Origin: an uncultured Acidobacteriota bacterium
Lineage (GTDB): Bacteria > Acidobacteriota > Thermoanaerobaculia > Gp7-AA8
Length of the DNA: 64,000 nt
Direction: 5' to 3'
Assembly: GCA_963741955.1 (NCBI GenBank)
Contig: CAVUKB010000004.1
Span: forward strand, 64,001 to 128,000
Under the pieces are notes generated by a model, which was not told the DNA's origin, made no database searches, and saw only the letters and a list, made by a program, of their open reading frames with translations. Each line of letters begins with the position of its first letter. The first letter of the stretch is position 1. Below are positions 47,254 to 64,000 of the stretch, piece by piece. The position numbers and the translations under genes are program-made.

Positions 47254-48826
47254 CAGGTGTGTAGCAGAGTTCATAGGCCGAGAGGATGGAATGCGATTGC
47301 TGACGTACAGAGGAACGCCATTGCGATCAGAGCTTCCGCGGTGTGAAAGCCGAAAGCGCGGTGACTGAGCATTCGGATCTTGTTGTTGCAGCCTTCAGCA
47401 ACTGCATTCGTGAGTCGATACTCGAAGTAACGGCGGATGCCAGGCCATTTCGCCGCGACGGTTCGCGCGAAGCGAACGAGGGGTTGAATGCGGCTATGAA
47501 CCGCGGACTGATACCAGCGCTTGAACCGTCGATCAGCTTGGCGGACGGACGAGGAGTCATAGATGTCCTGAAAGGATTCCTTGACCAGGTAACTGCGAAA
47601 GAGGGTGTGATTCATCCGCGCGAGCTCCGAGAGTTTCGCCTCCTCGGCATCACGCAGGTTCCAGGGGTTCTTCAGGAGGACGAACCGAGTGGATTTGAGA
47701 GCGGAGCGCTCCTCGCCGGTGGCCTTTCGCATCTCGTCCCGCCTCACCTGATCGATCGCATTCCCGAGGAGTTGGACCACGTGGAACCGATCGAAAACGA
47801 CCTCGGCGTTCGGCAGTCGGTCGCGAACAGCTTTCTCGAAGGCCGCGCTCATGTCGATGCTCACCAGACGGATTCGCGCGCAGCGCTCGGGGCCGAGCAG
47901 ATCGAACAGCCCGTCGAGAACCTCTGCACTTTTACCCTTCGCCGCCCAGATCATCTGCCCGGTCTCGTGGTTCGTGACCACGGTCATGAACTTCTTCGGC
48001 CGCCCCCAGCAGATCTCGTCGATGCCGATCCGGGTCAGATTCTCGAGCGCGTTCGGGTCGCGTTTTTCGGCAACCACTCGAGCGGCGATCCGTCCGGCCG
48101 TGAGCCAGCTGACCTTGAAGTACGCCGAGACCGCGGTTTGATTGGATCGCTGCAGAAACCAGGCAAGCTCGTCTTCGAACGCGCGGGTGAACATCGAACC
48201 AGGCCGTGCCCACGGAACCGCGGCCGTTCGCACCCCGCAGCGGCGGCAACGCACCCGCGGCAGATCCGCCCGCAGCATCACCCGGCATCCCCAGAGGCCG
48301 AGATGACGCCATTCGCGATGCTTCATCACCGTTCCGTGAAGCTCGGGAGCAACCCGTCCGCACCCTCCGCACCGCGGACGTCTCCACGTTGGACTCACGT
48401 CGAGATAGAGACTCCGAGCTTCGAACCGAACCCCGCGAACCGTTACGTTTGCCATGTTGAGCAACTTCCGGAACAATGTCGTCAGGCGCACCGTGCCTGT
48501 CCTCCCCGTGTCTTGGTTTCATCGACTACAGACTACGGGAAATGGGCAGCACGGTTCGCCGATTCCAACCTGCTATCGCTGCTTCGATCTTCACCTCTCC
48601 ACGAGCAGCGACTTTCGGGGCTCCTTCAGATCCTTCCGCGACGGCGGGGCAAGTTGTGGGAACGGCGGAAAACGCGGCGGCCGGGTGGCGGCGTTTTCCG
48701 CGGTTTCCACAACTTCGCTTTCCGAACGCTTCGGCGAACACCGACTTGCTCCTCGAAAACAGCCGCGTCGCCGTTCCTGCATGCCTCCGACAATCATTCC
48801 GCACCTACACACCTGTTAGGAGAACC
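47243..48826 (-). mobile_element. Complete ISL3-family insertion sequence, 1584 bp
   Basis: 22-bp IRs GG(A/T)TCTCCTAACAGGTGTGTAG; 8-bp TSD AATTTTTG at 47235-47242 and 48827-48834. Confidence 0.96.
47271..48491 (-). CDS. ISL3-family transposase
   Basis: CxxC...CxxC zinc finger, IGIDE, VSIDMSAAF, FDRFHV, TNAVAEGCNNKI...AFGF. Confidence 0.96.
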   Translation of the reverse strand: MRLTTLFRKLLNMANVTVRGVRFEARSLYLDVSPTWRRPRCGGCGRVAPELHGTVMKHREWRHLGLWGCRVMLRADLPRVRCRRCGVRTAAVPWARPGSMFTRAFEDELAWFLQRSNQTAVSAYFKVSWLTAGRIAARVVAEKRDPNALENLTRIGIDEICWGRPKKFMTVVTNHETGQMIWAAKGKSAEVLDGLFDLLGPERCARIRLVSIDMSAAFEKAVRDRLPNAEVVFDRFHVVQLLGNAIDQVRRDEMRKATGEERSALKSTRFVLLKNPWNLRDAEEAKLSELARMNHTLFRSYLVKESFQDIYDSSSVRQADRRFKRWYQSAVHSRIQPLVRFARTVAAKWPGIRRYFEYRLTNAVAEGCNNKIRMLSHRAFGFHTAEALIAMAFLCTSAIAFHPLGL

Positions 48827-48842
48827 AATTTTTGCCGGCCCT

Positions 48843-49025
48843 CCGAGCCTCGAGCCCCGAGCCTCGAGTCCCGCATCCACTCTTCCGAGCCTCGAGCCCC
48901 GAGCCTCGAGCCCCGCGTCTCTCACCTCGAGCCTCGAGCCTCGAGTCTCGAGCTCCGCGTCTCTCACCCCGAGCCTCGCGTCCCGAGCCTCGAGTCCCGC
49001 GTCTCTCACCCCGAGCCTCGCGTCC
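48843..49025. repeat. (CGAGCCT)n heptamer array of junction cassette copy 2 (copy 1 at 45832-45892)
   Basis: Both copies are followed by CCTGGAGCAGCG-ATGA-C(C/T)TCACC(C/T)TCGCAGAAAG. Confidence 0.9.
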
Positions 49026-49048
49026 CGCACCTTCAGCCTGGAGCAGCG

Positions 49049-52000
49049 ATGACTTCACCTTCGCAGAAAGCCATGAAAATGACGCAATCTCGCCAGACGG
49101 AGTCGCCCATCGGCCTCGACACTCAGAGACAATCAGACTGTCCCTCTCGAACCGGTTTATTCCGGACTACGGAGCGGCAGCAAGCGCGCGCGAGCGCCGC
49201 GCTCGTCGACACTGATCAGACAACCTGCCTGGATCGCCTCGGCGTGACTCTCGACGAGAGCAAGGATCATCGCCACGAGTTCCTCGTTCAGCACGTCCAC
49301 CATGCGGATCTGAATGACAGTGGGAAGACGCTGGGAGCTCAGGGCGAGGAGGTCGCTGAAGTCGAGGTCCCGGGTGACGACGACCCAGCCTTGCCGTCGA
49401 GCTCTCTCCAGAATCTCGGAATCAGCTGCGGTCGGCTCGCCGATCGACATCCAGTGAACGCTCTCGATCCCTCTTGTCGACAGCTTTCGCGCGAGGGAAG
49501 GAGCGAGATTGAAGTCGATCAGCAGCTTCACTGCGGGTCCGCAGCCTTACCGATCTCGACCTCGGCCTCGGACGAACGCCACGCTCCGTACGCCAGTGCC
49601 TCGCGGATGTCCGCTTCCTCGAGGTACGGATACTCGGACAGAATCTCCTCGGCAGTTCGCCCGGACGCAAGGAGCCCGAGGATCGTTCCCACCGTCACCC
49701 GCATCCCGCGGATGCACGGCTTTCCGCCCATGACTGCCGGATCCCTGGTGATGCGTGTCAGCCGATGCATGTCAGCCCTCCAGCGGAAGATCGGCGGTGC
49801 GGCTGCCGATCGTGTCCATTCCATCTCCCGCAACGCCACGGCCCGAACCCGAAATCTCGACAGGCCGAGGCATACTTCGAGCAGCCGCAGGAGCTCGGCT
49901 CTGAGCGGCCTCTCCGCCGCGCTGCTTCTCTTCTTCGCGCTACTTCCCGCCCTCCCTCTTTTCGCCCAATCTCCGACCGAAGTCGTCGTTCAGGAAGACT
50001 TCCAGTCGTACCCGACCCAGGCCAACCCGCAAGGCTGGGTCGATACCTCCGTCGGCAACCCGCACCCCCAGGCCGAGGGGCTGTACAAGACGTGGCCGGA
50101 TCCGACGCAGGGGAACAAGGGAGCGAATGTCGTCTACGGGACGAAACAATCCTCCGGCAAACCGGAAGGGCGCAACCCGCGCATCGGGACATTCTCCACA
50201 CTCGTCGATCACACATTCGGCACAAAGGGACGTTTCGAATACCGCGGGCGTTTCATCCGCACGCGCTCCGACGCGCGCATCGGCCTCACGTTCCTCTCCT
50301 CCTATCCCGACTCCGACCACTATTACCTTCTCGGCCTCTGGTCCCAGGCGACGTCGAGCAAGCTCACCATGCAGCTCTTCTCGTTCGGCGCGGGGACGCT
50401 GACCGGCACCATCGACAGCAACTTCACTCCCGAGCCCGGCAAGTGGATCCGCTTCCTCATTCAGGTCGACGGATCGGACGCTGGCAACAAAATCCGCGCG
50501 CGCTTCTGGATCGACGGCACCGACGAGCCGTCCGGATTCACGATCGAGGCGGAAGACTCCGCCGCGGGACATCTCGCGTCGGGCCGCATCGGTATCTGGG
50601 CCGCAGTCAAGGGCGACGCATACTTCGACGAGCTCTTCGCGAAGTACCCGGTCGACATCACCGCGCCCGCAATCTCCTTCCTCGAGTCGGGAACTACGCT
50701 CAACGACGGCGCGAAGTTCAACCGCGACGTCGCCCCCGCGATTCAGGTCGTCGACGACACCGACCCGAGCCCCTCCTGGTCCGCAACGCTCGACGGACAG
50801 CCGTTCACGTCCGGAACGACGGTCGCCGCCGAGGGAACGCATCTCCTTGCAGTCGACGCGGCCGACTCAGCCGGGAACGCGTCGCACGCCCAGCTCTCCT
50901 TCTTCATCGACAAGACTGCGCCGCTCCTCGCGGTTACCGAATCGGGCGCGCCACTCGCCGACGGCGCGATCTTCGATCACGATGCTGTCGTCTCGATTGT
51001 CGTGACCGACATCAGCGCGACCACCGACGCGATCCTCCTCGATGGCCAGCCTTACACATCGCTCACCCCGATCACCACGGAAGCGCAGCACGAGCTTTCC
51101 GTCTCTTCGATCGACGAGCTCGGAAACGGCCCCACGACGTTCGGTCCGGTTCATTTCTTCGTCGACGAGACCGCGCCGGTCGTGACCATTCTCCAGAACG
51201 GAGCGACGCTCCAGGAAGGCTCGGCGTTCAACCACGACGTCACCGGCTCACTCGCTATCGAAGACCTGACCCCGACCACGAGCTCCATGGCCCTCGACGG
51301 GCAGCCCTATGCGTCCGGAACGCCGATCAGCACCGACGGCTCTCACACCCTCGCCGCGACGGTCACGGACTCCGCTGGTCACACCACCACCGCCGGCCCG
51401 CTCCATTTCATCCTCGACGAGGCAGGGCCCACGGTCACCATCCTCGAGAGCGGCCAGCCGTTCCCGGCGGCCTATTTCTTCAACCGGGATGTCGTCGCGT
51501 CGGTCTCAGTCGACGACATCGCGCCGCACACCGCGACGATGTCTCTCGATGGTCAGCCGTACACGGAAGGGACGCCGATCACCGCCGAAGGTCCGCATGA
51601 GATCTCGGCGCACGTGACGGACACCGCAGGAAACGACGTGACCGTCGGTCCGATCGCGCTCACCATCGACAAGACTCCGCCCGTCGTGACGCTCCTCGAG
51701 AGCGGCCAGCCGTTCGCGGCGGGCCAGACGTTCCCACGCGACGTGGTCGCGGATGCCACTGCCACCGACACGATCTCGAAGGCCACGCTCACTTTGACCC
51801 TCGATGGGCAGACGTACGTCGCCTCCACTCCCGTCACCGCCGAAGGAGAGCACACCTTCGCCGCGACCGCCGTCGACCAGGGGGGGAACACGGCGTCCGC
51901 CTCCGTCTCCTTCGTCATCGACGAGACTCCCCCCGAGTTGTCGTTGCTCCTCGGCGGGCAACCGTTCCCGGCCGACCTCTGGACGAATCAGGATGTCACT

Positions 52001-55000
52001 CCCGAGCTCGACATCGTCGACATCTCCACCACCACGACCGACGCGACGCTCGACGGAGCACCGTACGCGATCGGCGCGCCCGTCTCTCTGGAAGGGGAGC
52101 ACGTTCTCGACGTCGCCGTGACCGATGCCGCGGGGTGGACCACGACGCTCGACGCGGTGACGTTCCACATCGACCGCGTACCTCCGGCACTCACTGTCAC
52201 TTCGCATCAGCAGGGTCAGGTCTTGCCGGAGCCGCGCGTCGTCCTCGCCGGCGGTGCGGATGACGCCGTGAGCGTCACGGTGAACGGCCAGACGGCGACG
52301 GTCGACGCGACGGCGAGAACGTGGACTGCGCCCGAGCTTCCACTGCTCGAAGGAAGCAACGCGTTCACGATCCGCGGGACGGACCGCGCCGGGAACAGCG
52401 GGGAGATCACGCTGAATCTAGTTGCCGACACCCGCGCGCCGGAGCTCGCGATCGTGGCGCCCGTTGCCGGAAGCTGCGTCGCCGGCTCGCCGCTCGAGAT
52501 CCGCGGTTCAGCCAGCGATCCCGAGATCGGCGACGTCGTGGTCTCCGTCGATGGAACGTCGGTTCCCGCCTCGCTCGACGCGTCCGGCAACTTCGTCGTC
52601 ACGTTCGCCAACCTCTCCGAAGGAGAGAAGAACGTCACCGTCACGGCGACGGATACGATCGGACATGCGACCTCGCTCGTCCTCCCGCTCAGCATCGACC
52701 GCACGCCGCCGGTCATCGCCGTCACCGAGGGCGGCAAGCCATTCACCGCGACGCTCGTGAACCGCCCGATTGCACTCTTCATCAGCACCAGCGACGCCGA
52801 CCCGAACGCGAAGCCGGTGGCAACGCTCGACGGCGCGGCGTACTCCTCCGGCTCCACGATTGCGAATGAAGGTGCCCACGCGCTTCAGATCACCGCGACC
52901 GACTGTGCCGGTCTCACCGCGACGAGCTCCCTTACCTTCACCATCGACACGACCGCACCGACCATCACGAACCTCCTCCCCGCCAACGGTGCCACGGTAG
53001 GGGAGATGCCGACGACGGTCACCGGCAAGACCGATCCTGACGTCCACGACCTCGTCGTTCGAGCCTCGAGCCTCGAGTCCCGAGCCTCGTCTTTCGCCCC
53101 CGACGGCACCTTCACCATCCCCAGCGTCCCCTTCGCCGAAGGGGAGAACCGCTTCACGATTCACGCGACCGATGACGCCGGAAACTCCAGCGACACGCCG
53201 TACGTCGTCACCGTCCGCACGACGACTCCTTCTCTCGAGATCCTCGACAGCGGCTCGCCGATCCCGCCCGGCGCGCTCTACAACCGCACCGTCACGCCGG
53301 TGATCCGCAGCGGAGCCTCCGACGCGACGATCTCCGCGACCCTCAACGGCGATCCCTTCACCTCGGGGACGGAGATCACCGCGGACGGCGCGTACACTGT
53401 CGACGCCACCGCCACCGACTCGCTCGGCCACAGCGGGAACGCAACCGCGACGTTCTCGATCGACCGCACGCCTCCCGCTGTCGCGATCGCCTCGCCCGCC
53501 GACGGCGCGGCGATCGACGCCGATCAGGTCGTGGTGACCGGCACGTCCGGGGATGCGACATCCGTCAATGTCGACGGCGCGCCCGCCGCACTCGACGGCA
53601 GCGGCCACTTCACCGCGACGCTTCCGCTCGAACCGGGCGAAACGGCGATTATTGCGACCGGCCGTGACGCCGCCGGCAACTCCGGCACCGCTCAGATCAC
53701 CGTCACCCGCGCCGCTGCTGCGACCGGCATCATCCTCACGTCACCCACCGACCACTCCCTGACCAACCGCCCGACCACAGTCGTCACTGGCCGCATCCTC
53801 ACTCCCGCAAATGCCGTGTCGCTCGTCATCGACGGCACCGCGCTCGGAGCGCAGGCTACCGGCCGGCGCTCTCCTTCAAATGCACCCGGATCCACGCCGC
53901 TCGCGACGGCCCATTCCCCTCTCCCCGTCCGGACCTTTGCCTCGGGCGTAAATCGAACTCCGGGGAGAGGGGTCAGGGGTGAGGGGCAACTACGCGCGCA
54001 AACCGAAGTTGTGAGCACGAGTCCCGAGTCCCGAGCCTCGAGCCTCGCAACTCCCTTCGACCCCACCGGCGCATTTCGCGTCACCGCGTTCCCTCTGGTC
54101 GAAGGCGAGAACACCATCACCGCGACCGTCACCGACAAGTCCGGCAAGACCAGCACCGCGAGCGTCCGGATCACAGCAGACCTGACCCCACCCGCTGTGT
54201 CGCTGCTCGAATCAGGCCAGCCTCTGGAGGACCAGGCCCGTTTCGCGACGCAAGCCCTCCTCTCCGCGACGGCGACCGACTCCGGTGCCGCCATCGACGC
54301 GACCCTCACCATCGACGGCGCGTCTGCCACGTCGCCCGGCACGATCACGGCTGCCGGCCCGCACATCGCAATCGCCTCGGCACGCGACACGGCCGGCAAC
54401 GTGACCCGCGTCCAGCGCACGTTCTTCATCGGTACGGAGCAGGGGAGTGGGTGCGGTCTCTCCGCATTCGATCCTGCCGATGGCTCCGTCGTCACCGCGA
54501 GCTCCGTCACGCTCGTCGGCCGCAGCGGCGGCGCAGCCGGCGTCACGGTCAACGGTGTCCCCGCAGTGGTCGCGAACGGCTCGTTCTCCGGCACCGCGGA
54601 GCTCCCGCAGGAAGGGCCGAACCTCGTCACCATCCGCTGCACCGACGCCTCCGGCAACCCCACCGGCGGCCCGGTCACCCTCACTCTCAACCGCGTCACC
54701 GGCAATCCATCCGTTTCCATCACCACTCCCGCCGAGATGGCGACGTTCGCCGCCGGAACCGTCGATGTCACCGGCACGTACGCCGATGCCTCCCGCGTCG
54801 ACGTCAACGGAGTCGCCGCGACGCTCGCGAACGGAACCTTCAGCGTCGCCGCGCTCCGTCTCTCTCCTGGTCTGAACATCCTGGTCGCCCGTGCCACCAA
54901 CGAAGCCGGCCGCAGCTCCATCGCTTCGCGCCGCGTCCTCTATCTCGACAAGTCGTCCGTGATCTCCATCGACTGGCCGAACGACGGCTTCACCACCGGC

Positions 55001-58000
55001 GCCGCCTCTCTGGACGTCAGCGGCACGTGGAGCAATCTCGTTCCGTCGACCATCACAGTCAGTGTGAGCGGCGTGCAAGAGGCGAGAGACGAGAGGCGAG
55101 GGGCGAGAAGGAACACAACAGGTCGGCTGCGGTCGGCGGAGCCACGATCGAAGAACGATGTCGCGAGCGACGACGGTACGGTTTCTTCACGCACCGCCCG
55201 CCACTCGACACACGCCTCCGATCGCATCGCAGCGCAGGGAGAGAAGAATGAGCTTCGACTATCGCGATCTGAAAGCGTGGCAGCTCGGAATGCAGATGGC
55301 TCGTCGGGTCTACGAGATCACGCGAGATTTTCCGAAGCGAGAACAGTACGGCCTGACGCAACAGATCCAGAAGGCAGCCGTTTCGGTTCCGTCGAACATT
55401 GCGGAAGGTCATGCGAGGGATTCGACGGCGGACTTCCTCCGCCATCTGTCGATCAGTCGCGGTTCGCTCGCGGAATTGGAAACGCAGCTGATCTTGGCGA
55501 AAGCTTTTGGATATCTCCCTCTGCAGAGCCTGGAGGAGTTGATGAAAGTATCGGACGAGCTGAGCCGAACTCTGAGGGGACTTCAAAAATCGTTGAGGCG
55601 TCGACTGGAGAAGAAACCATAGCGGAAGTGTCGATCGATGCGATTGCGTGGTCCGACACGACTGGAAACTTCATCGCTCACGCGGTGCCCTTGCTTCCCG
55701 GTACTCAGACCATCACCGTGACGGGTTCGACCATGGATGGTCGCATCGCCACCACGAGTATTCGGGTGACCAGAATCGATGGCGAATCAGACATTACGAT
55801 CGATTCGCCTCTCGCCGAATCCTGGTTCAGCGCGAACGCGGGAGATCCGATCTCCGTCGCCGGCACCTTCACTGCAGCTCCCGGTTCCAATGTCGAGGTG
55901 AATGGTTCGACGGCGACCCTCGGCGTCGCCTCTTCTTCGACCAGAACAGTCACCCTCGCCGCGTCCTCAACGAGCGCTGTCTCTGCGCACCCCGTTTCTT
56001 CGCTCGCCTCTCGCCTCTCGCCTCTCGCCTCTTCTTCGACCAGAACAGTCACCCTCGCCGCGTCCTCAACGAGCGCTGTCTCTGCGCACCCCGTTTCTTC
56101 GCTCGCCTCTCGCCTCTCGCCTCTCGCCTCTTCTCCTTACTCTGCAACCGCCGCGTTCTCCTCCTCCGACCCCACTCCCATCATCGCCCGCGTCACCCAG
56201 CCCGACGGCCTCTCCGCGATCACGACCATCTTCGTCCATCACCTCTCGGGCGCTCCTGCAGTGAAGGACGTCTTCCCCGCGGACGGCGCCACTTCCGTCG
56301 ATCCCGCAGCGCTGATCCTCGTCTCCTTCTCCGCGCCGATGGACCGCGCGTCGCTCTCGGCCGCATTCACGCTCGAGAACATGAGCGGCATGCCCGTCGC
56401 CGGACAGATGCGTCTCGATCGCGATGTCCTCAGCTTCGCCCCCGCGACGACTCTCAATCCCGGCGAGCGCTATACCGTCCGTCTCTCGACCGCCGCGAAG
56501 GACCTCGCCGGGAATGCGCTCGCCTCCGAGTTCACCAGCAGCTTCACGATCTCCACCACGGCGCCATCCACCGCGCCGGTGGTGAACCCGGTCGCCTCGC
56601 CCCTCTGCTCGGATCGGGTCGCCCTCAGCGGCACGGCACTTGCGGGGTCACGTCTGCGGATCGATTTCAAGGGCGTTCCGCAGTTCACGGCCGCGGCTCC
56701 GACGGAACGTGGCATTTCGATCTCGCCATCCCCGCCGAATCGGGATTCGACGTGGTCCGCGTCCGCATCGTCGGCGGCGACGGCACGCTCTCGCCTGCGG
56801 CCGAAGTGAAGTTCCAGGTCGACTGCGCCGGTCCGCAGCTTCTCGGCGCGTCCTACGACCGCACCACGAACATCGTCACCATCGACGTTCTCGAAGCCGA
56901 TGGATCTCGCATCAGCGTCCACCGGCCGAACTCCGCTCTCTCTCTCCAGATCGCCGACGGCACGATCCTCGGCGGCACCGTCGCGCAGGGCGACGAGCTC
57001 CTCTTCGCTCACCCTTACGCCAGCATCCGATCTGACGCAGCAGACGTTCACGCTCAACGTCACGACCGCGATCAAAGACACTACCGGCCGCAACCTCGTC
57101 TCCGGCTATACGCAGACCTTCGCCACCGGCTCCGGATCCGAACCTCCTCCCACCGACGGCACCGGCTACATCTCCGGCAAGATCCTCGACGCCGCCACCG
57201 GTCGCCCCCTCGCGGGCGCGGACATCACCATTGACGTCCCCGTGAACGCCTTTGCCCGAGGGGAGCAAGCTCATAGCTTGCTCTCTCGTTCCACTGGATC
57301 CGCACCCATGCCTCTCGGGACCTCCGGTTCCCCTCTCCCCGTCCACACCCAGGCCTCGGGCGCAATTCGCACTTCGGGGAGAGGGGTCAGGGGTGAGGGG
57401 CAGCTACGCGCGCTGAGCGAAATCGTAAGCGCCGCTTCGTCCACCCTCTCCTCCGACGCCACCGGCACCTATACCACCCGCCTTCCCGAAGGCGCCTACA
57501 CCATCCACGCATCCGCTCCCGGCTACACCGAGGTCTGGCGCCAGATCGTCGTCCCGGCCGGCCAGGGCGTCCTCCCGATCGACATCCGTCTCACACCCCT
57601 CGGCGCCACCGGCACCGTCGGAGCGGCCTCCATCGAGCCCCGAGCCTCGAGCCTCGAGCCTCGGTTCCGTCGGCTCTCCCACGAGCCCCGAGCCTCGAGC
57701 CTCGAGCCTCGGCTCTGTCGGTTCTCCCACGAGCCCCGAGCCTCGAGCCTCGAGCCTCGGCATCCTCTTCAGACCTGACCCTCTCCCACGGCGGCGAGAC
57801 ATCCGTCACCCGCCCCGCGACGCTGACCGTCCCCTCCGGCGCCGATCACCTCCGGCACGACACTGACACTCACCTCCGTCGGCGGCCAGTCCCTCGCCGG
57901 CCTCCTCCCTCTCGGCTGGTCCCCGCTGGCGTCCACAGAGATCTCCTCCGTCGCCACGTCCGCGAACGCAGCCCGAGGGGAGCGAGCTTATAGCTTGCTC

Positions 58001-61000
58001 TCTCCGAAGACATCCGCAGAAATCGGACCTGCCAGCGCGAATCGCCCAGCGTCCTCCCTCGCCGCTCCGGTTTCGTCCTCACTCGTCTCTCGCCTCTCGT
58101 CTCTCGCCTCTCTCCCCAACTCCACTCTCACGTTCACCGTCCCTTACACCGATATCACCAGCGCGGCTCAGACCCTCACCGCCGTCCGCTACGACAGCGA
58201 TCGCGACGAATGGATCGTCCTCGAGCCCGTCGTCAGCATCACCTCCGACGGCCCCGCCTCGATCACCGTCGACTCCACCGGCGCGTACGCTCTCGTCTAC
58301 CCGGATAAGGACTCGGGGAGTACTCTGCAGACTCCACCGCTCCCCATTCCAGGCTCGGCGCTCGCCGGCGTCACTCCCGTCGACCTCGATCCGACGACCA
58401 TCACCGCATCTCTCACCCTCGATCCTTCGATCGTTCTCCCCAGCGGCCGAACCGTCGGCACCCTCACGGTCTCTCCGAGCCTCGAGCCTCCAGCCTCGAG
58501 CCTCGCGTTCCCCTCGGGCACCGCAGTCCAGGCGTTCGTCCACGAAGAGCTGCGTCTCGTCGACGGAACCGTCGTCGCGGACCAGCCGTTCTCCGCGGAC
58601 CTCGTCCTCTACCGCACGCTCTCCGGCGCTCCGGCGACCGCGGCGTTCCACCTCCAGCCGAGCGCGAAGGCCGCGACGGTTCCGCTGCAGATCGGCTACG
58701 ACCACATCCGCGTCTTTCCGTATCCCGGACGCCTCGACCGCGGCACACTCATCGGCCCCGAGGGTGGACGCGTTCCCTCGGATGGGGGAGTGGAGCTCGA
58801 GATCCCGCCCGGCGCAGCCACCGAGCCGCTCCACGCCAGCGCGACGTCGCTCGACGCCACTGCGCTCGCTTCCTACGGCACCATCGACGGCTTCACCCTC
58901 GTCGGCGGCTTCACGTTCTCGCTCGACCGCGCAGTCGGGGGAGAAGAGGCGAGAGACGAGAGGCGAGAGGCGAGTGGATCTGACGCCCGAGGCTCTCGTG
59001 GCTCGGGCTCTTCGTCACGCGCATCGGAGATTGGAGCTGGCAACGGTGATCGTGAAGCGTTCTCTCTCGCCTCTCGTCTCTCGCCTCTCGCCTCTGACGT
59101 CGCGTCCCCCACGCTTCTCGCCTCCGCCCGCGCGACCTTCTCCGTCGACACGACCAATCTCACCGCGCCCCAGTTCATCCTCGCCGAGGTCCTCGGCGAC
59201 ACGCCGTACGGCCGTGTGATCCGTCTTGCGAACGTGATGGAACCACTTGTTGGAGGAGCCGAGGCTCGAGACTCGAGGCTCGAGGCTCGCAGCGGCATCG
59301 CCCGTGGAGAGCAGGCTTATAGCCTGCTCCCTCCGGTACCATCTTCAGACACGGGTGTCGCGAACGATCATCGTCAGGCGTCCTCTCTCGCCTCTCGCCT
59401 CTCGTCTCTCGCCTCTGATTCCACGCGCATCACCACATCCAGGATCGATCCCTCGAACCTCCCTCTCGACGGCATCTCCCACTCCGGGATCTACCTCCTC
59501 CTCCGCGCGAACCAGCCCATCGCCTACGCGACGGGTCTCGTCCGCTTCGGCATCTCCGGCCTCTACGCCTCCGACGCCAGCGTCCTCTCACTCACGTCGA
59601 CGCCACTCGGGACGGCGTCGGTCAAGGAGGCGAGAGGCGAGAGGCGAGAGGCGAGGGGAGGAACGAATTCCGGACTTCTGTCATCGTCACCCGCTGATGC
59701 GCAGGCTCATAGCCTCCGCTCTGGTTCCGGCAAATCCGTACCCGCGACTCTCGCGACGCCCGCTTCCCCTCTCCCCGTCCGCACTCTCGCCTCGGGCGCA
59801 AATCCCAATTCGGGGAGAGGGGTCAGGGGTGAGGGGCAACTACGCGCGCAGAACGAGGTCGCTCGCAGGGCCTCCTCCCTCGCCTCTCGTCTCTCGTCTC
59901 TCGCCTCTTCTCCCGCGTCGCTCGCCGCTTCGTCCCCCCTCGGCACCACCGACCTTACCCGCCCCACCGGCCTCTTCTCCATCCCCGTCGTCGCCACTCC
60001 CGCGGATCCCTTTGCGCTCCAGCCCTCGCACCCATCCACCGGCGCCGGCACCCCCTGGACCGCAAACTCCAGCCCTGACCCCGGCATCGTCATTCACGTT
60101 GGCGATCTTGTTCTCACATCGCAGCCGCCGCAGCTCCAGCACGTCAACGTCATTGGCGGCGACCCCTCCGGCACGATCGACCTCGTCGCCGTGAACGGGG
60201 CAGGCGAGATCTCCCTAGGCACGAGTGTTCAGGCCCTCTTCGACGTGAACCTCGATCCGGCATCCGCCGGCGCGACCTCGCTCGTCGTCACCGACGCGTC
60301 CACGCAGACCGTCGTCGCGGGCACCGCGATGCTCGCCGGCTCGACCCTCACCTGGACCGCATCCACTCCGAACGCGCTTGCGCCGTCGAGGCAATACAGG
60401 GTGACCCTCTCAGCCACGCTCCGCGGCGCGAACGGCGCCCCGCTTGGGACGACCCGCACGTTCGCCTTCACCACCGTTTCGCAGATCACCAGCACCGAGA
60501 TCGATCCTTCCAAGATCCACATCACCATCCCCGACGCGAACGGCGTATCCACAATTTACGGCCTCCCCGGCGCGCTCCCCTCCGGCTGGCGCGCCGTCGC
60601 CCTCCGCCGCGGCACCGCCTTCGTCACGCAATACCAGACCACCGCCGCAGGGGATGGAAGTTTCTCGTTCGCGATCGGCGGGTGCGGGGGAGGGACGGGG
60701 GTCGGGGGTCAGGGGTCAGGGGTCAGGGAGCTGAGTCGATCTGATCGCCGGACCTCTGAGATTTCCCGCGACGAAGCCTTGTCCCTGTATTCGTCGACCC
60801 ACACGTCACCCCGACCCCTGACCCCCGACCCCGGACCCCTAAGCTCCGTCTCGCAACCACAATTACGAAAGGCCACTCATGAAGATACAAACCTATCGCG
60901 ATCTGGTCGTCTGGCAGGAATCGATGCAGCTCGCGAAACAGGTGGTCCTGATCGCGCGTCGGTTTCCTCGGGAGGAACTCTTCGGATTGTCGGCGCAGGT

Positions 61001-64000
61001 CAAGAGAGCAGCCGTATCGGTGCCGTCGAATATCGCGGAAGGGCACGCGCGGGATTCGACGAAGGAGTATCTCCATCATCTATCGATTGCTCACGGTTCT
61101 CTGGCCGAAGTGGAGACGCAGCTCCTGCTGGCGAAGGATCTTGGCTGGGGAGACTCGTCTTCGATCGAAGGAGCTCTCCAACAGAGCGATTCACTCGGCA
61201 GGAAGCTTCACGCATTACGCAGATCGCTTCGATCGCGCCGCTGACGGCGGCTCTCCCTGACCCCCGACCCCTAACCCCTGACCCCCACTCCCGTCAGGCG
61301 ACTACGACATGCACGGACCAGCTCTCCCTCACCGACCACATCTCCCTCGAGATCCTCAACACCGCCGACAACATCGCGGCGATCATCCCGCTCACGCCAT
61401 TCGTCACGGCGGACGGCCACGGCTTCGTCGCCCCGCCCGACCAGGACATCACGTTCATCATCTCGGACGAGATTACCGTCCACGTCCCCGCCGGCGCGTT
61501 CGACCAGCCAACGCTCGTCACCGCCACGCCGTCCACGAAGGACGCCTTCTCCGAAGTCCCGAACTTCGACACAGAGCTCGACTACAAAGCCTCGGTCAAC
61601 CTCTCCTTCGACTGCACAGTGGCTTCTTCGTCCTCCCCGAGCCTCGAGCCTCGAGCCTCTAGCCTCGGTTCCCCAAGTCTCGGTTCCCCAACGAGCCTCG
61701 AGCCCCGAGCCTCGAGCCTCGCGTTTCCCTGTCGCGCGAACAAGCCCCTCGACCTCTCCATCCCGGTTCCCGCAAACACCGACCCCACGAAGCAATACCT
61801 CCTCGGCTGGCTCGGCCAGTCCATCCGCGGCCCGCGGATCATGATCGTCGACACCCTCCGCATTGACGGCGACCACTTCACCACCACGCCCGCGCCGTCG
61901 ATCGGAACGACCAGTGCGCAAACCGTGCACGCATCGTCGACCTTTTCAAACTCGTCGCTCTACCAGGTTCGAGATCCCGGAACGTACGTCATCACCTCAC
62001 TGCTCAGTCCCTACGCCTGGGTGGATGTCGTCGTCAGATCGGCTGACCTCTACTGGTCGACGTCGTTCTCTCTCTTCGTCGCAGAACGCTACATCACGAT
62101 GGCGAAGGGTCACGTATACATCCCCGTGCTGACGGACACGCCCTTCCGCGTCTACGGCGTGGACGCGACCGGTTTCGAAACCTATTCGCGCGATTACGAC
62201 GGAATCGTTCCTGGAGATCCTGGAGTTTCGGTAGCACTCCCATCGGCATCTCCCGATAACAATGGACCTTATCCCGTGTGGGGCAGCCCTTATCGCGTCG
62301 ATTCCGTAATCCTTCGCGATGGAGACGTGATCGTTCCAAACATCAAGGTCAATCAGTCGGGAGGAGTTGCGACGGTCACGCAGAACTCTTCCTCCACCAC
62401 CGCGAGTGTTCTTTCGAAGGGAACGAAGGTTCAGGCATTCGACGTCGAAACCGGCGCGGTGAACAGCGCGACAGTCGGTGACGGCGGCAGTTTCTCGATG
62501 TCAGTTTCTCCGGTCCATTCCGGAGACCGTCTTCTTCTCTTCATCAGTGCCTCCGACGTCGATCCGTCGAGTCTCGTCACCGTGGTTTTCAACGAGCCGC
62601 TCCAGCTCGCGAACATTCCGGAAGGCATGAGCTCCGCGGATGCCGAGATCGCAAACGAGAAGTTCCTGCACGACCTCATCGGCCTCGAGCACTTCACTAG
62701 TACGGGATGGGTACCGATAACCGACCAGGTGCACTTCCGGCACGATTCGGGAGACCGCCGAATCGTCCTCGAGTTGCCGTCCTCGCTGGTTCGAGGCGAT
62801 CGGTATCGGGTTCACCTCAGCGAGGCAATCACCGACGCCGGGGACAACCACATCGGATCGGTTAAGGACTCCAGCGGGAAGGTCACCAACGGCGCTGGAC
62901 TCCCGTTGGATCTCGAATTCACGGTCCGCAGCCCACACGGCGCGATCTCCTCTTTCGACATCGATCCGAGCACGGCTCACCATGGAGGGCTCGTGCGTGA
63001 CATCGCACGCAACGACACCCTCGTCTTCGTCTCGGCTCTCGACGGCGGAATCCTCGCCTACGATACATACGATCCGGCTGCACTCGCAAAAGACGGAAGC
63101 ACTCCGGCGCCCCTTTCCTTCGTGCCGGCCGCATGGACCAACGATGCCGGACAGCAGGTGACCGGCGGGATGGACGAGCACTGGGCGCTTGCCGTCGATA
63201 AGCACGGGCGCGTCTTTTCGACCGGCTTCATGGCCTCGTTCTCGGTCCTTCGGACTTACCGCGTGGAAGATTTCTGGAAGGCCTCCACTCAGCCCATGTG
63301 TGCCGGATTCGATCAGGCGCCACCGCACGCCCTCTGTAGATACGAGGGCTCCTCAATCATCGCCTGGCGCCCCGGAGTGTCGCTCGGCATTCCCGGGATC
63401 GACGATTCCCTCTACGGACTGACGGAAGGCTATCCGCGAAAGATCCGAGTCATTGAGCAGGACGATGGAGGGGAAGCTCTAGATCGAGACAACTTTGCGT
63501 CGACCTACGGAGGCGCGATCCAGAAGACCTTCAGCAATGGGATTCAGAAACTCTCCGTCACCGTCGCATGGGATACCACGAATCCCTACCAGCTCCAGCG
63601 CATTACGGTGGAGAACCTGACTCAACAGCTTCACTGGTCTGCCGACGCGACCCCGACGTCTCCTGCCGTGATCTCGGAGATCCTCGCCAAACCGGACGAC
63701 AAGCTCCGAATTGTGAAGAACGAGCGCACGTGGGCCGTCGTATCTCTCTTCGGCTACGGGATCGCCACCTACGACGTGAACGCCATCGAATCCAATGATT
63801 CACCAGATAAGGCTGCGGGTTACACCAACGTACCCGAACAGCTGTTCCTCTCGTCCGCCAGCGTCGACGATGCGTGCGACGGCCGGACGTTCCCGACCGA
63901 GGCGATCCGGGATTTGGCCTTCAGTCCCGATTTCGTCGCGAAAGTGGAAGTCGACGCCACGACCAACACAGCGACCATTGGGATCGACGCTCTCGATGTC
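49049..64000 (+). CDS. Giant-2: secreted protein of at least about 4980 codons (lectin/ConA-like N-domain, many Ig-like repeats), 3' partial, with short indel clusters at 56690-57000 and 57630-57845
   Basis: GGAG RBS plus ATG MTSPSQK; hydrophobic signal LSAALLLFFALLPALPLFA|Q at about 49910-49967; D.T.P...LDGQPY.SGTPI..EG.H....TD.AGN repeats; frame 2 is open from 57827 to the window end (hand-translated to about 62450; no frame-2 stop appears in the ORF track). Confidence 0.85.
49157..49531 (-). CDS. DUF5615 PIN-like toxin, antisense within the 5' region of giant-2
   Basis: MKLLIDFNL...D.EIL..A.....VVVTRDLDF. Confidence 0.9.
   Translation of the reverse strand: MKLLIDFNLAPSLARKLSTRGIESVHWMSIGEPTAADSEILERARRQGWVVVTRDLDFSDLLALSSQRLPTVIQIRMVDVLNEELVAMILALVESHAEAIQAGCLISVDERGARARLLPLRSPE
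49528..49770 (-). CDS. DUF433 antitoxin
   Basis: RITRDPAVMGGKPCIRGMRVTV...EEILSEYPYL...DIREALAY. Confidence 0.93.
   Translation of the reverse strand: MHRLTRITRDPAVMGGKPCIRGMRVTVGTILGLLASGRTAEEILSEYPYLEEADIREALAYGAWRSSEAEVEIGKAADPQ
53916..53998. repeat. CCCCTCTCCCCG...CGGGGAGAGGGGTCAGGGGTGAGGGG hairpin element, in frame in giant-2 (further copies at about 57329-57412 and 59767-59850)
   Basis: All three copies translate SPLPV.T.ASG....(P/S)GRGVRGEGQLRA. Confidence 0.85.
55248..55622 (+). CDS. Four-helix-bundle protein (TIGR02436 / 23S rRNA IVP family), nested in the +1 frame of giant-2
   Basis: YRDLKAWQ, FPKREQYGLTQQIQKAAVSVPSNIAEG, SRGSLAELETQL; GGGAGAG RBS. Confidence 0.93.
   Translation: MSFDYRDLKAWQLGMQMARRVYEITRDFPKREQYGLTQQIQKAAVSVPSNIAEGHARDSTADFLRHLSISRGSLAELETQLILAKAFGYLPLQSLEELMKVSDELSRTLRGLQKSLRRRLEKKP
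55927..56133 (+). repeat. 99-bp tandem duplication ending in (TCGCCTC)n, in frame
   Basis: ASSSTRTVTLAASSTSAVSAHPVSSLASRLSPL occurs twice. Confidence 0.9.
58945..59095. repeat. Heptamer inverted-arm insert with a stem of about 30 bp, in frame in giant-2
   Basis: AGAGGCGAGAGACGAGAGGCGAGAGGCGAG (58945-58974) pairs with CTCGCCTCTCGTCTCTCGCCTCTCGCCTCT (59066-59095). Confidence 0.88.
60879..61244 (+). CDS. Second four-helix-bundle protein (TIGR02436 family), nested in the +1 frame of giant-2
   Basis: TYRDLVVWQ, FPREELFGLSAQVKRAAVSVPSNIAEG, AHGSLAEVETQL; flanked by (GGGGTCA)n at 60697-60727 and (TGACCCC)n at 60807-60840 and 61255-61288. Confidence 0.93.
   Translation: MKIQTYRDLVVWQESMQLAKQVVLIARRFPREELFGLSAQVKRAAVSVPSNIAEGHARDSTKEYLHHLSIAHGSLAEVETQLLLAKDLGWGDSSSIEGALQQSDSLGRKLHALRRSLRSRR

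Follow-up and report, generated by a model that had tools for sequence, protein, structure and literature searches.

How can a complete gene lie wholly within another bacterial gene, on the same strand but out of frame with it, and leave the host frame open? Same-strand genes nested in this manner are rare and usually doubtful. A candidate is found in a 64,000-nucleotide stretch of DNA from an uncultured Acidobacteriota bacterium (positions 64,001 to 128,000 of contig CAVUKB010000004.1, assembly GCA_963741955.1; hereafter "the window"), where a gene for a four-helix-bundle protein of the S23p family (PF05635) lies inside a long open reading frame (ORF A) that encodes part of a giant surface-type protein with immunoglobulin (Ig)-like repeats. 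An initial annotation of this DNA, made from its letters and a list of open reading frames, had described the arrangement as a same-strand overlap with both frames apparently maintained. We consider it reasonably probable that the locus holds a selfish insertion of the type known from intervening sequences (IVSs) of 23S rRNA genes, and that this insertion is translated through in a stop-free host register. In this case the nested family can be identified, the history of insertion is clear, the layout recurs independently in several phyla, and selection against host-frame stops leaves a signature that can be measured.

The inserted stretch (55079-55621) comprises 543 nt and contributes 181 stop-free codons to ORF A, in agreement with the roughly 180 open codons that had been claimed for it. 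The ORF A translation passes from ...TITVSVSGVQ through EARDERRGARR ... TGEETI to AEVSIDAIAWSDTTGNF... (from 55622) without a stop. The host-frame sequence of the insert is charged and of low complexity, and repeat sequence lies on both sides. The nested gene starts with an ATG at 55248, ends with a TAG at 55620-55622, and lies one base downstream of the host frame. Its product matches PF05635 (23S rRNA intervening-sequence protein) over profile positions 1-105 of 106 (E = 2.6e-37; 127.7 bits versus a cut-off of 33.8) and TIGR02436 ("four helix bundle protein"; 122.1 bits versus a cut-off of 24). Furthermore, residues 6-119 match, in a sequence-only comparison, the four-helix-bundle protein XCC0516 (PDB 2gsc_A; E = 1.3e-26). 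A Shine-Dalgarno-like GGGAGAG spans the nucleotides 5-11 nt upstream of the ATG. These matches bear out the initial annotation, which had called an intact gene with its own ribosome-binding site in the +1 frame. No sigma-70-like promoter was found in a scan of 54800-56200, which hints that the element relies on host transcription.

The GC content inside the segment (0.535-0.62) is lower than that outside (0.645-0.73). A contig from a public DNA run, which may be the source sample, spans 54901-55955 and thus both junctions with 0 differences; therefore, the junctions are not an assembly chimera. Neither an empty-site joint nor a repeat-number variant was seen in contigs of three DNA runs, a result that is uninformative on polymorphism. 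A search for RNA runs covering 54800-56200 gave none.

Comparison with related genomes indicates how the overlap arose. We searched 30 relatives with an 835-aa host segment around the nested gene. Orthologues from seven related genera (G011, G007, G010, G018, G021, G020, and G002) match residues 1-257, resume at residues 439-451, and resume again at residues 605-621; the matching pieces from G014 are shorter. Where these 7 aligned orthologues have a variable linker of 13-20 aa between two strands of an Ig-like repeat, the present gene has 181 extra codons. Because the orthologues do without it, segment 55079-55621 is, by this comparison, an insertion (insertion 1), with edges placed to within about 30 nt. 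The equivalent loop of the next Ig-like repeat carries another block of about 70 aa that is own to this genome (insertion 2). An AlphaFold2 model built on the orthologue alignment assigns predicted local distance difference test (pLDDT) values of 81-95 to the flanking beta-sandwich parts. Modelled residues 123-287 and 396-456, which correspond to insertions 1 and 2, fall below 50 (about 30 for insertion 1) and show no secondary structure. Neither a target-site duplication nor the exact empty site is recoverable, as no giant-gene orthologue exceeds 60% identity.

The nested layout recurs within the same genome. Seven PF05635 matches are present, 6 of them above the cut-off. The three best genes are all nested on the same strand, with the host at offset +2 (equivalent to -1) of the nested frame; the three weaker copies are free-standing and carry stops in that register. 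The three nested proteins are just 56% and 36% identical to one another, so a single fortunate insertion that was copied recently does not account for them. One of them lies downstream in the same giant gene, within its continuation ORF B. It has three (GGGGTCA)/(TGACCCC)-type arms, and the left one has two potential pairing partners: an inner arm ahead of the PF05635 gene and the arm that follows the gene. The third resides in an intact 1313-aa SNF2/Helicase_C/NOV_C gene (G000:C4:2503-6444; locus L008), where the element (L002:1445-1874) is bracketed by 31-nt arms. Residues ~900-1045 of this helicase host, encoded by the arms together with the PF05635 gene, are missing from its orthologues (81%, 63%, and 63% identity). 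The exact empty site is again unrecoverable, since even the closest orthologue (81% amino acid identity) has a linker that is too divergent.

To this set we added 80 further PF05635-family loci collected from many phyla. A copy was counted as nested, by an operational definition, when the host frame continues without a stop for 300 nt or more on each side, or as far as the locus reaches; one copy (L024) was counted although it lies on a short contig with 88 nt downstream. Nesting was found at 7 of the 113 loci examined, and in all 7 cases host and nested gene share a strand, with the host at offset +2. None is antisense, and the antisense frame is stop-free in 14 of the 113 loci. Four of the nested copies are among the 80 loci from other phyla (Thermodesulfovibrio, Clostridia, Fibrobacteres, and Tannerellaceae; gene GC 0.38-0.51), and their hosts are Eco57I/MmeI-type, Type ISP, and DUF1156 methylase genes. 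On our reading, the Tannerellaceae and Fibrobacteres elements lie between what we take to be conserved methyltransferase motifs. If this placement holds, the methylase would be whole solely if translation crosses the element. Such recurrence in bacteria that are not related to one another suggests that the layout is a product of selection and not an accident. A specialised ORF-invading lineage was also considered but found no support: the nested copies are scattered in a tree that was built quickly and is poorly resolved (of its 81 inner branches, 47 are open), in which nested copy L069 is sister to free-standing copy L062 with 97% support.

A stop at offset +2 requires a T-ending codon followed by a codon that starts with AA, AG, or GA. 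In the nested genes, the choice among synonymous codons keeps such stops out of the host frame. Across the 7 nested genes, T occupies 0 of 198 risky sites and 145 of 648 other sites; for 78 non-nested genes the corresponding counts are 364 of 2,312 and 1,845 of 7,388. Synonymous shuffling within the gene at 55248 (2,000 trials) gave a mean of 4.9 stops and a probability of 0.001 of no stop. The same probability is 0.036 and 0.083 for the other two nested genes of this genome and 0.0005, 0.0055, 0.029, and 0.013 for the remaining four. Among the 78 non-nested genes, 3 are stop-free, versus 0.37 expected by shuffling.

The initial annotation had suggested counting stops in this register among free-standing family members, and the count does not overturn its view of the overlap, as these members are not usually stop-free. 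The host register is open in 3 of 45 non-nested copies with gene GC of 0.52-0.63 (mean 3.3 stops) and in 4 of 27 copies from related genera (mean 2.1 stops). Among the 80 loci from other phyla, offset +1 is never stop-free (0/80) and offset +2 is stop-free in 7, including the 4 nested copies. By reasoning, offset +2 is the sole register in which synonymous changes can remove every stop, which may explain its constancy.

Several observations weigh against our reading, and some of them favor an account in which the layout results from chance and decay. In that account, the element landed in a pseudogene already in decay, off-frames are often open because the genome is GC-rich, and the open register carries no meaning. 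Relative to its orthologues, the giant gene does leave and re-enter frame twice (at ~56.70/57.02 kb and ~57.77/57.85 kb). These frameshift pairs are 1.1-2.2 kb downstream of the insertion and result in in-frame stops at 56807-56809 and 57776-57778. The changes are either assembly indels or recent breakage of the gene. It is thus possible that the host became a pseudogene recently; present selection on the host frame of this copy would then be unproven, and the open-frame signal would date from the time when the gene was whole. The chance share of stop-free copies at high GC is not trivial (7 of the 72 non-nested copies above), the shuffle probabilities of the genome's other two nested copies are individually modest, and the genome is full of heptamer elements. 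A survey of 19 related genera yielded 28 PF05635 loci and no nested copy. The nested copies form no clade in the poorly resolved tree, and the stop-free state may have come before or after insertion. Finally, no arm adjoins the stop codon of the gene at 55248, and the sole complementary arms sit in the separate insertion 2. Lacking an adjacent right arm, this copy may be truncated and immobile.

Chance and decay nevertheless account poorly for the absence of T from all 31 risky junctions of this gene and for its shuffle probability. Nor do they explain why the 139-nt leader is also open and why the insertion preserves phase. All three nested copies of the genome use the same register, one of them within an intact helicase gene, and the methylase-nested copies reach shuffle probabilities of 0.0005-0.029 at a gene GC of 0.38-0.51. 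Moreover, about 10 further insertions with heptamer arms, all own to this genome, occupy both long halves of the giant gene (ORFs A and B), which argues that the gene was functional while insertions built up. We therefore regard chance and decay as an unlikely origin for the layout.

The identity of the element follows from its construction. Passages of a report on the 23S IVS of Coxiella burnetii (PMC4990558) describe an S23p ORF preceded by tandem GACAGAT heptamers, present in different numbers in different strains, and a terminal stem of 28 bp that is cut by RNase III. Because the combination of a PF05635 gene with heptamer arms matches this published build, the segment at 55079 is, on sequence grounds, an element of the 23S rRNA IVS type that has landed in a protein-coding gene. 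The genome's single 23S rRNA gene (C5:1280427-1283390) is 2,964 nt long versus a 2,925-position model and has no large insert, and no rRNA was found near the genome's other PF05635 copies.

Arms of this kind are common in the family. Inverted arms with 7-nt periodicity bracket the gene in 39 of the 79 loci with enough flanking sequence, versus 0 of 79 when flanks are shuffled. The right arm begins no more than 100 nt after the stop codon in 36 of these 39. Arm sequences are wholly different among elements and complementary within each. A finished example is Nostoc edaphicum plasmid pNe_5 (L128, 259376-259744), where a (GGGAGTA)n arm, the PF05635 gene, and a (TACTCCC)n arm follow one another. 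The gene is antisense there and resides in the spacer between two ribonucleotide reductase genes. In a Bryobacteraceae metagenome-assembled genome (L050, 2957-3587), an element lies between mraY-like and murD genes. Its right arm is in frame within murD, 189 nt after the PF05635 gene, and a stem would enclose the murD start. This PF05635 gene is stop-free at offset +2, and that frame continues into murD. The layout with a distal right arm is the same as that of the copy at 55079.

Period 7 also dominates the repeats of the Acidobacteriota genome, which has 537 period-7 runs of at least 21 nt compared with 7 of period 8 and 4 of period 10. The commonest heptamer units are AGGATCG (123), AGCCTCG (63), and AGAGGCG (40). 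These runs are mostly intergenic (143 of 537 are within long open frames versus 1,081 of 2,000 random windows). The ORFs with the most runs are the two halves of the giant gene, with 13 and 7. A 14-nt pattern derived from the arm has 38 matches in the window, compared with 3.44 expected.

At the 55079 copy, the nearest complementary arms, (CTCGCCT)x4.3, are located at 56003-56032 and 56102-56131, or 380 and 480 nt downstream of the nested gene. These are essentially the positions given by the initial annotation, which had also warned that a stem would enclose about 100 codons of genuine host sequence. This warning was sound, since the ~100 codons in question are conserved, with 34-46% identity to the orthologues.

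The arms raise the possibility that they pair in the transcript and that the hairpin is excised by RNase III, with or without re-joining, leaving a host protein that lacks the insert. The predicted folds are compatible with pairing: both the minimum free energy and the centroid structure join the left arm to the arm at 56.1 kb, and the second nested element folds with z = -5.05. Passages of PMC4990558 document RNase III excision for the homologous IVS. However, removal at the RNA level would make both the stop-free register and the kept phase needless, yet both are found in 7 of 7 nested copies. The stem would also take the conserved host domain out of the message, and RNase III cleavage without ligation would destroy the host mRNA. 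A self-splicing intron or ribozyme was rejected as well, as an Rfam search of 48000-64000 at E values up to 1 returned no intron or ribozyme family and just weak look-alikes of microRNA hairpins on the arm hairpins. We consider RNA-level removal quite improbable.

The two copies in the window also reveal which frame is conserved as protein. Their nested frames are identical at 67 of 120 residues (56%), with nucleotide identities of 0.63, 0.67, and 0.47 at nested codon positions 1, 2, and 3. Identity is 32% in the host frame and 34% in the third, non-coding frame. The nested frame thus behaves like a protein under purifying selection, and protein-level conservation appears in this frame only. 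Because host-frame identity is no better than that of the third frame, and because the model of the insert is disordered, the host-frame stretch is best read as a tolerated spacer: a stop-free, phase-kept loop whose sequence seems free and which probably holds no second functional domain. The overlap and the two open frames described by the initial annotation therefore stand, whereas its proposal that both frames are maintained does not extend to protein-level constraint on the host frame. That annotation also did not identify the segment as an inserted IVS-type mobile element missing from the orthologues, or note that the layout is repeated in this genome and in other phyla. True two-protein coding, in which the host-frame peptide would be a functional domain selected at the amino acid level, could draw on the 181 open codons and on the similarity of the host-frame peptides from the two window copies (E = 5.9e-10; 39% over 92 residues), but this similarity is imposed by the shared nested gene, the modelled insert has no secondary structure, no Pfam domain extends across it, and the orthologues do without it, which makes this explanation very hard to credit.

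We propose the following sequence of events for a selfish IVS-type insertion that is translated through. A promoter-less S23p/PF05635 element with a G-rich heptamer arm at its 5' side, which in such elements is normally matched by a closing C-rich arm, would insert where an Ig-like repeat forms a surface loop, in the orientation of the host gene and with a length that preserves the host phase. A ribosome translating the host would read straight through the stop-free -1 register and add a disordered loop of about 181 residues. Ribosomes that start internally on the host transcript, at the ribosome-binding site of the nested gene, would make the nested protein. We infer both the host read-through and the internal initiation from the layout. 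The open host register would then reflect selection, either through the survival only of copies that do not break the host or through adaptation towards that state. As a guess by analogy with its distant relative Avd, the four-helix-bundle protein might bind nucleic acid in the propagation of the element itself.

This arrangement shares features with two known kinds of insertion. According to the passages of PMC4990558 on the 23S IVSs of Coxiella burnetii and Leptospira, those elements likewise carry a PF05635 gene in the sense orientation of the host, with heptamers directly upstream and no promoter of their own, and they are tolerated since the host gene product is not destroyed. Their complementary termini form a long stem; here, the complementary arms are distal, and the genome's two other nested copies are flanked by arms. 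Unlike those IVSs, which occupy helix 25 or 45 of 23S rRNA, the present element has a protein-coding ORF as its host, lacks an adjacent right arm, and would owe its tolerance to stop-free, phase-kept read-through rather than to excision of a stem. The second kind is represented by the Rickettsia palindromic elements (RPEs), described in passages of a review (PMC10969869) as palindromic sequences that lie in frame within ORFs, are translated, and are judged compatible with the fold of the host protein. By its layout, our insertion resembles an RPE or an in-frame miniature inverted-repeat transposable element, as it is inside an ORF, keeps phase, has no stop, is absent from orthologues, and is placed in a loop. 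The roughly 10 gene-less mini-elements in the same giant gene are of this RPE-like sort. However, the RPEs of those passages are about 150 bp long and encode nothing of their own, whereas here an intact conserved gene is present in another frame of the same strand. The element thus combines known kinds, namely, IVS elements and in-frame RPE-like insertions, yet with its own gene in another frame.

More distant comparisons are with Avd, inteins, and cyanobacterial repeats. The nested protein has distant homology to Avd proteins of diversity-generating retroelements (PF22296 bAvd, E = 8.5e-07). A role as such an accessory protein was rejected, as its score against NF033474 is 29.9 bits versus an equivalog cut-off of 80 and no reverse transcriptase is nearby. 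The sole RVT_1 match of the genome (G000:C11:800-1360) is on a 10.5-kb contig near no PF05635 copy. Inteins are selfish elements within host ORFs that are translated in the host frame and splice themselves out of the protein. The analogy is functional only: both keep the host frame, but the element protein here is encoded out of frame with the host, and there is no sign of protein splicing. The cyanobacterial repeats known as STRR, whose home taxa are Nostoc and Calothrix, are also tandem 7-nt repeats, and the one plasmid locus inspected, that of pNe_5, has heptamer arms. A literature search on STRR and heptanucleotide repeats yielded nothing relevant. A PF05635 gene is present in 36 plasmid records, including 15 from Nostoc and 4 from Calothrix. 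The labels under the match are "four helix bundle protein," "S23 ribosomal protein," or nothing, which shows little because the gene table is incomplete. We found no published description of S23p or four-helix-bundle genes within protein-coding genes in a search that had supplements outside its scope.

More broadly, and tentatively, elements composed of a PF05635 gene and heptamer arms might constitute a cross-phylum class of selfish elements within working transcription units, which would be tolerated through stem excision in 23S rRNA and through read-through in protein genes. The arms could possibly serve as frame adjusters after insertion or as reversible on/off switches. An arm unit of 7 nt is not divisible into whole codons, so each unit gained or lost would shift the host frame, and the adhesin-like and restriction-modification host genes would be the targets of such switching. 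This notion offers a testable idea of how restriction-modification enzymes and giant adhesins gain large loops or become switchable. It would also link the 30-year-old puzzle of 23S IVSs and the unexplained S23p genes to promoter-less elements hidden in essential or useful transcripts. For genome annotation, such insertions matter because the host genes will be called split or pseudogene, or the nested gene will be missed.

Features of the window that bear on the nested gene are collected in the table below.

Table. Coordinates (window positions) of the nested gene, its host, and associated insertions.
Feature	Position	Strand	Description
Nested PF05635/TIGR02436 four-helix-bundle (S23p-family) gene	55248..55622	+	124 aa; +1 frame of host
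Left arm	55078..55108	+	(AGAGGCG)x4.4, G-rich heptamer tandem; host frame reads EARDERRGAR
Leader	55109..55247	+	139 nt; open in host frame; Shine-Dalgarno-like GGGAGAG at 55237-55243
Insertion 1	55073..55651	+	own to this genome versus orthologues; edges ±~30 nt; variable loop
Host Ig-like domain	55652..55925	+	between nested gene and distal arms; orthologue matches; pLDDT 81-95
Insertion 2	55926..56134	+	perfect 99-bp x2.1 tandem, units ending (CTCGCCT)x4.3; in frame; absent from orthologues
Host ORF A	48476..56809	+	2777 aa; N-terminal part of giant Ig-repeat surface-type protein
Frame-change zone	56700..57850	+	from comparison with orthologues; young pseudogene or assembly indels
Host ORF B	57995..64000	+	same giant gene, same frame, continued; runs off window end
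Second nested element	60692..61300	+	in ORF B, 5 kb downstream; host frame open, same register
Left arm of second element	~60692-60730	+	(GGGGTCA)n
Inner arm of second element	~60811-60845		C-rich
PF05635 gene of second element	60879-61244	+	
Right arm of second element	~61256-61290		

Profile searches of ORF A identify its Ig-like repeats as Glucodextran_B (E = 3.1e-57) and Big_13 (E = 1.4e-52), and a Big_5 match at residues 2593-2691 lies downstream of the nested-gene segment. As listed, ORF A probably begins with ~490 non-coding codons, and the true start is probably near a signal-peptide-like stretch at ~49.8 kb. Upstream of this probable start, at 48800-49050, there is a run of (GAGCCTC)-type heptamers over which the open frame reads SEPRAPSLE.... 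In related genera, each orthologue of the giant gene forms one uninterrupted frame (2117-7386 aa, and 833 aa in one case).

A (GAGCCTC)n insertion occupies 57633-57760, and the second frameshift pair of the giant gene comes directly 3' of it. Three identical copies of a G-rich motif of 27 nt are present (53962-53988, 57376-57402, and 59812-59838; 0 expected), each within an in-frame mini-insertion where the host frame reads ...SPLPV(R/H)T..ASG...GRGVRGEGQLRA.... These mini-insertions look like a family of gene-less hairpin elements. A palindromic motif with a GCTYATAGC core is present in four mini-insertions of the giant gene (57268-57281, 57985-57998, 59314-59327, and 59704-59717); it is always on the + strand and has 5 matches in the window, compared with 0.05 expected.

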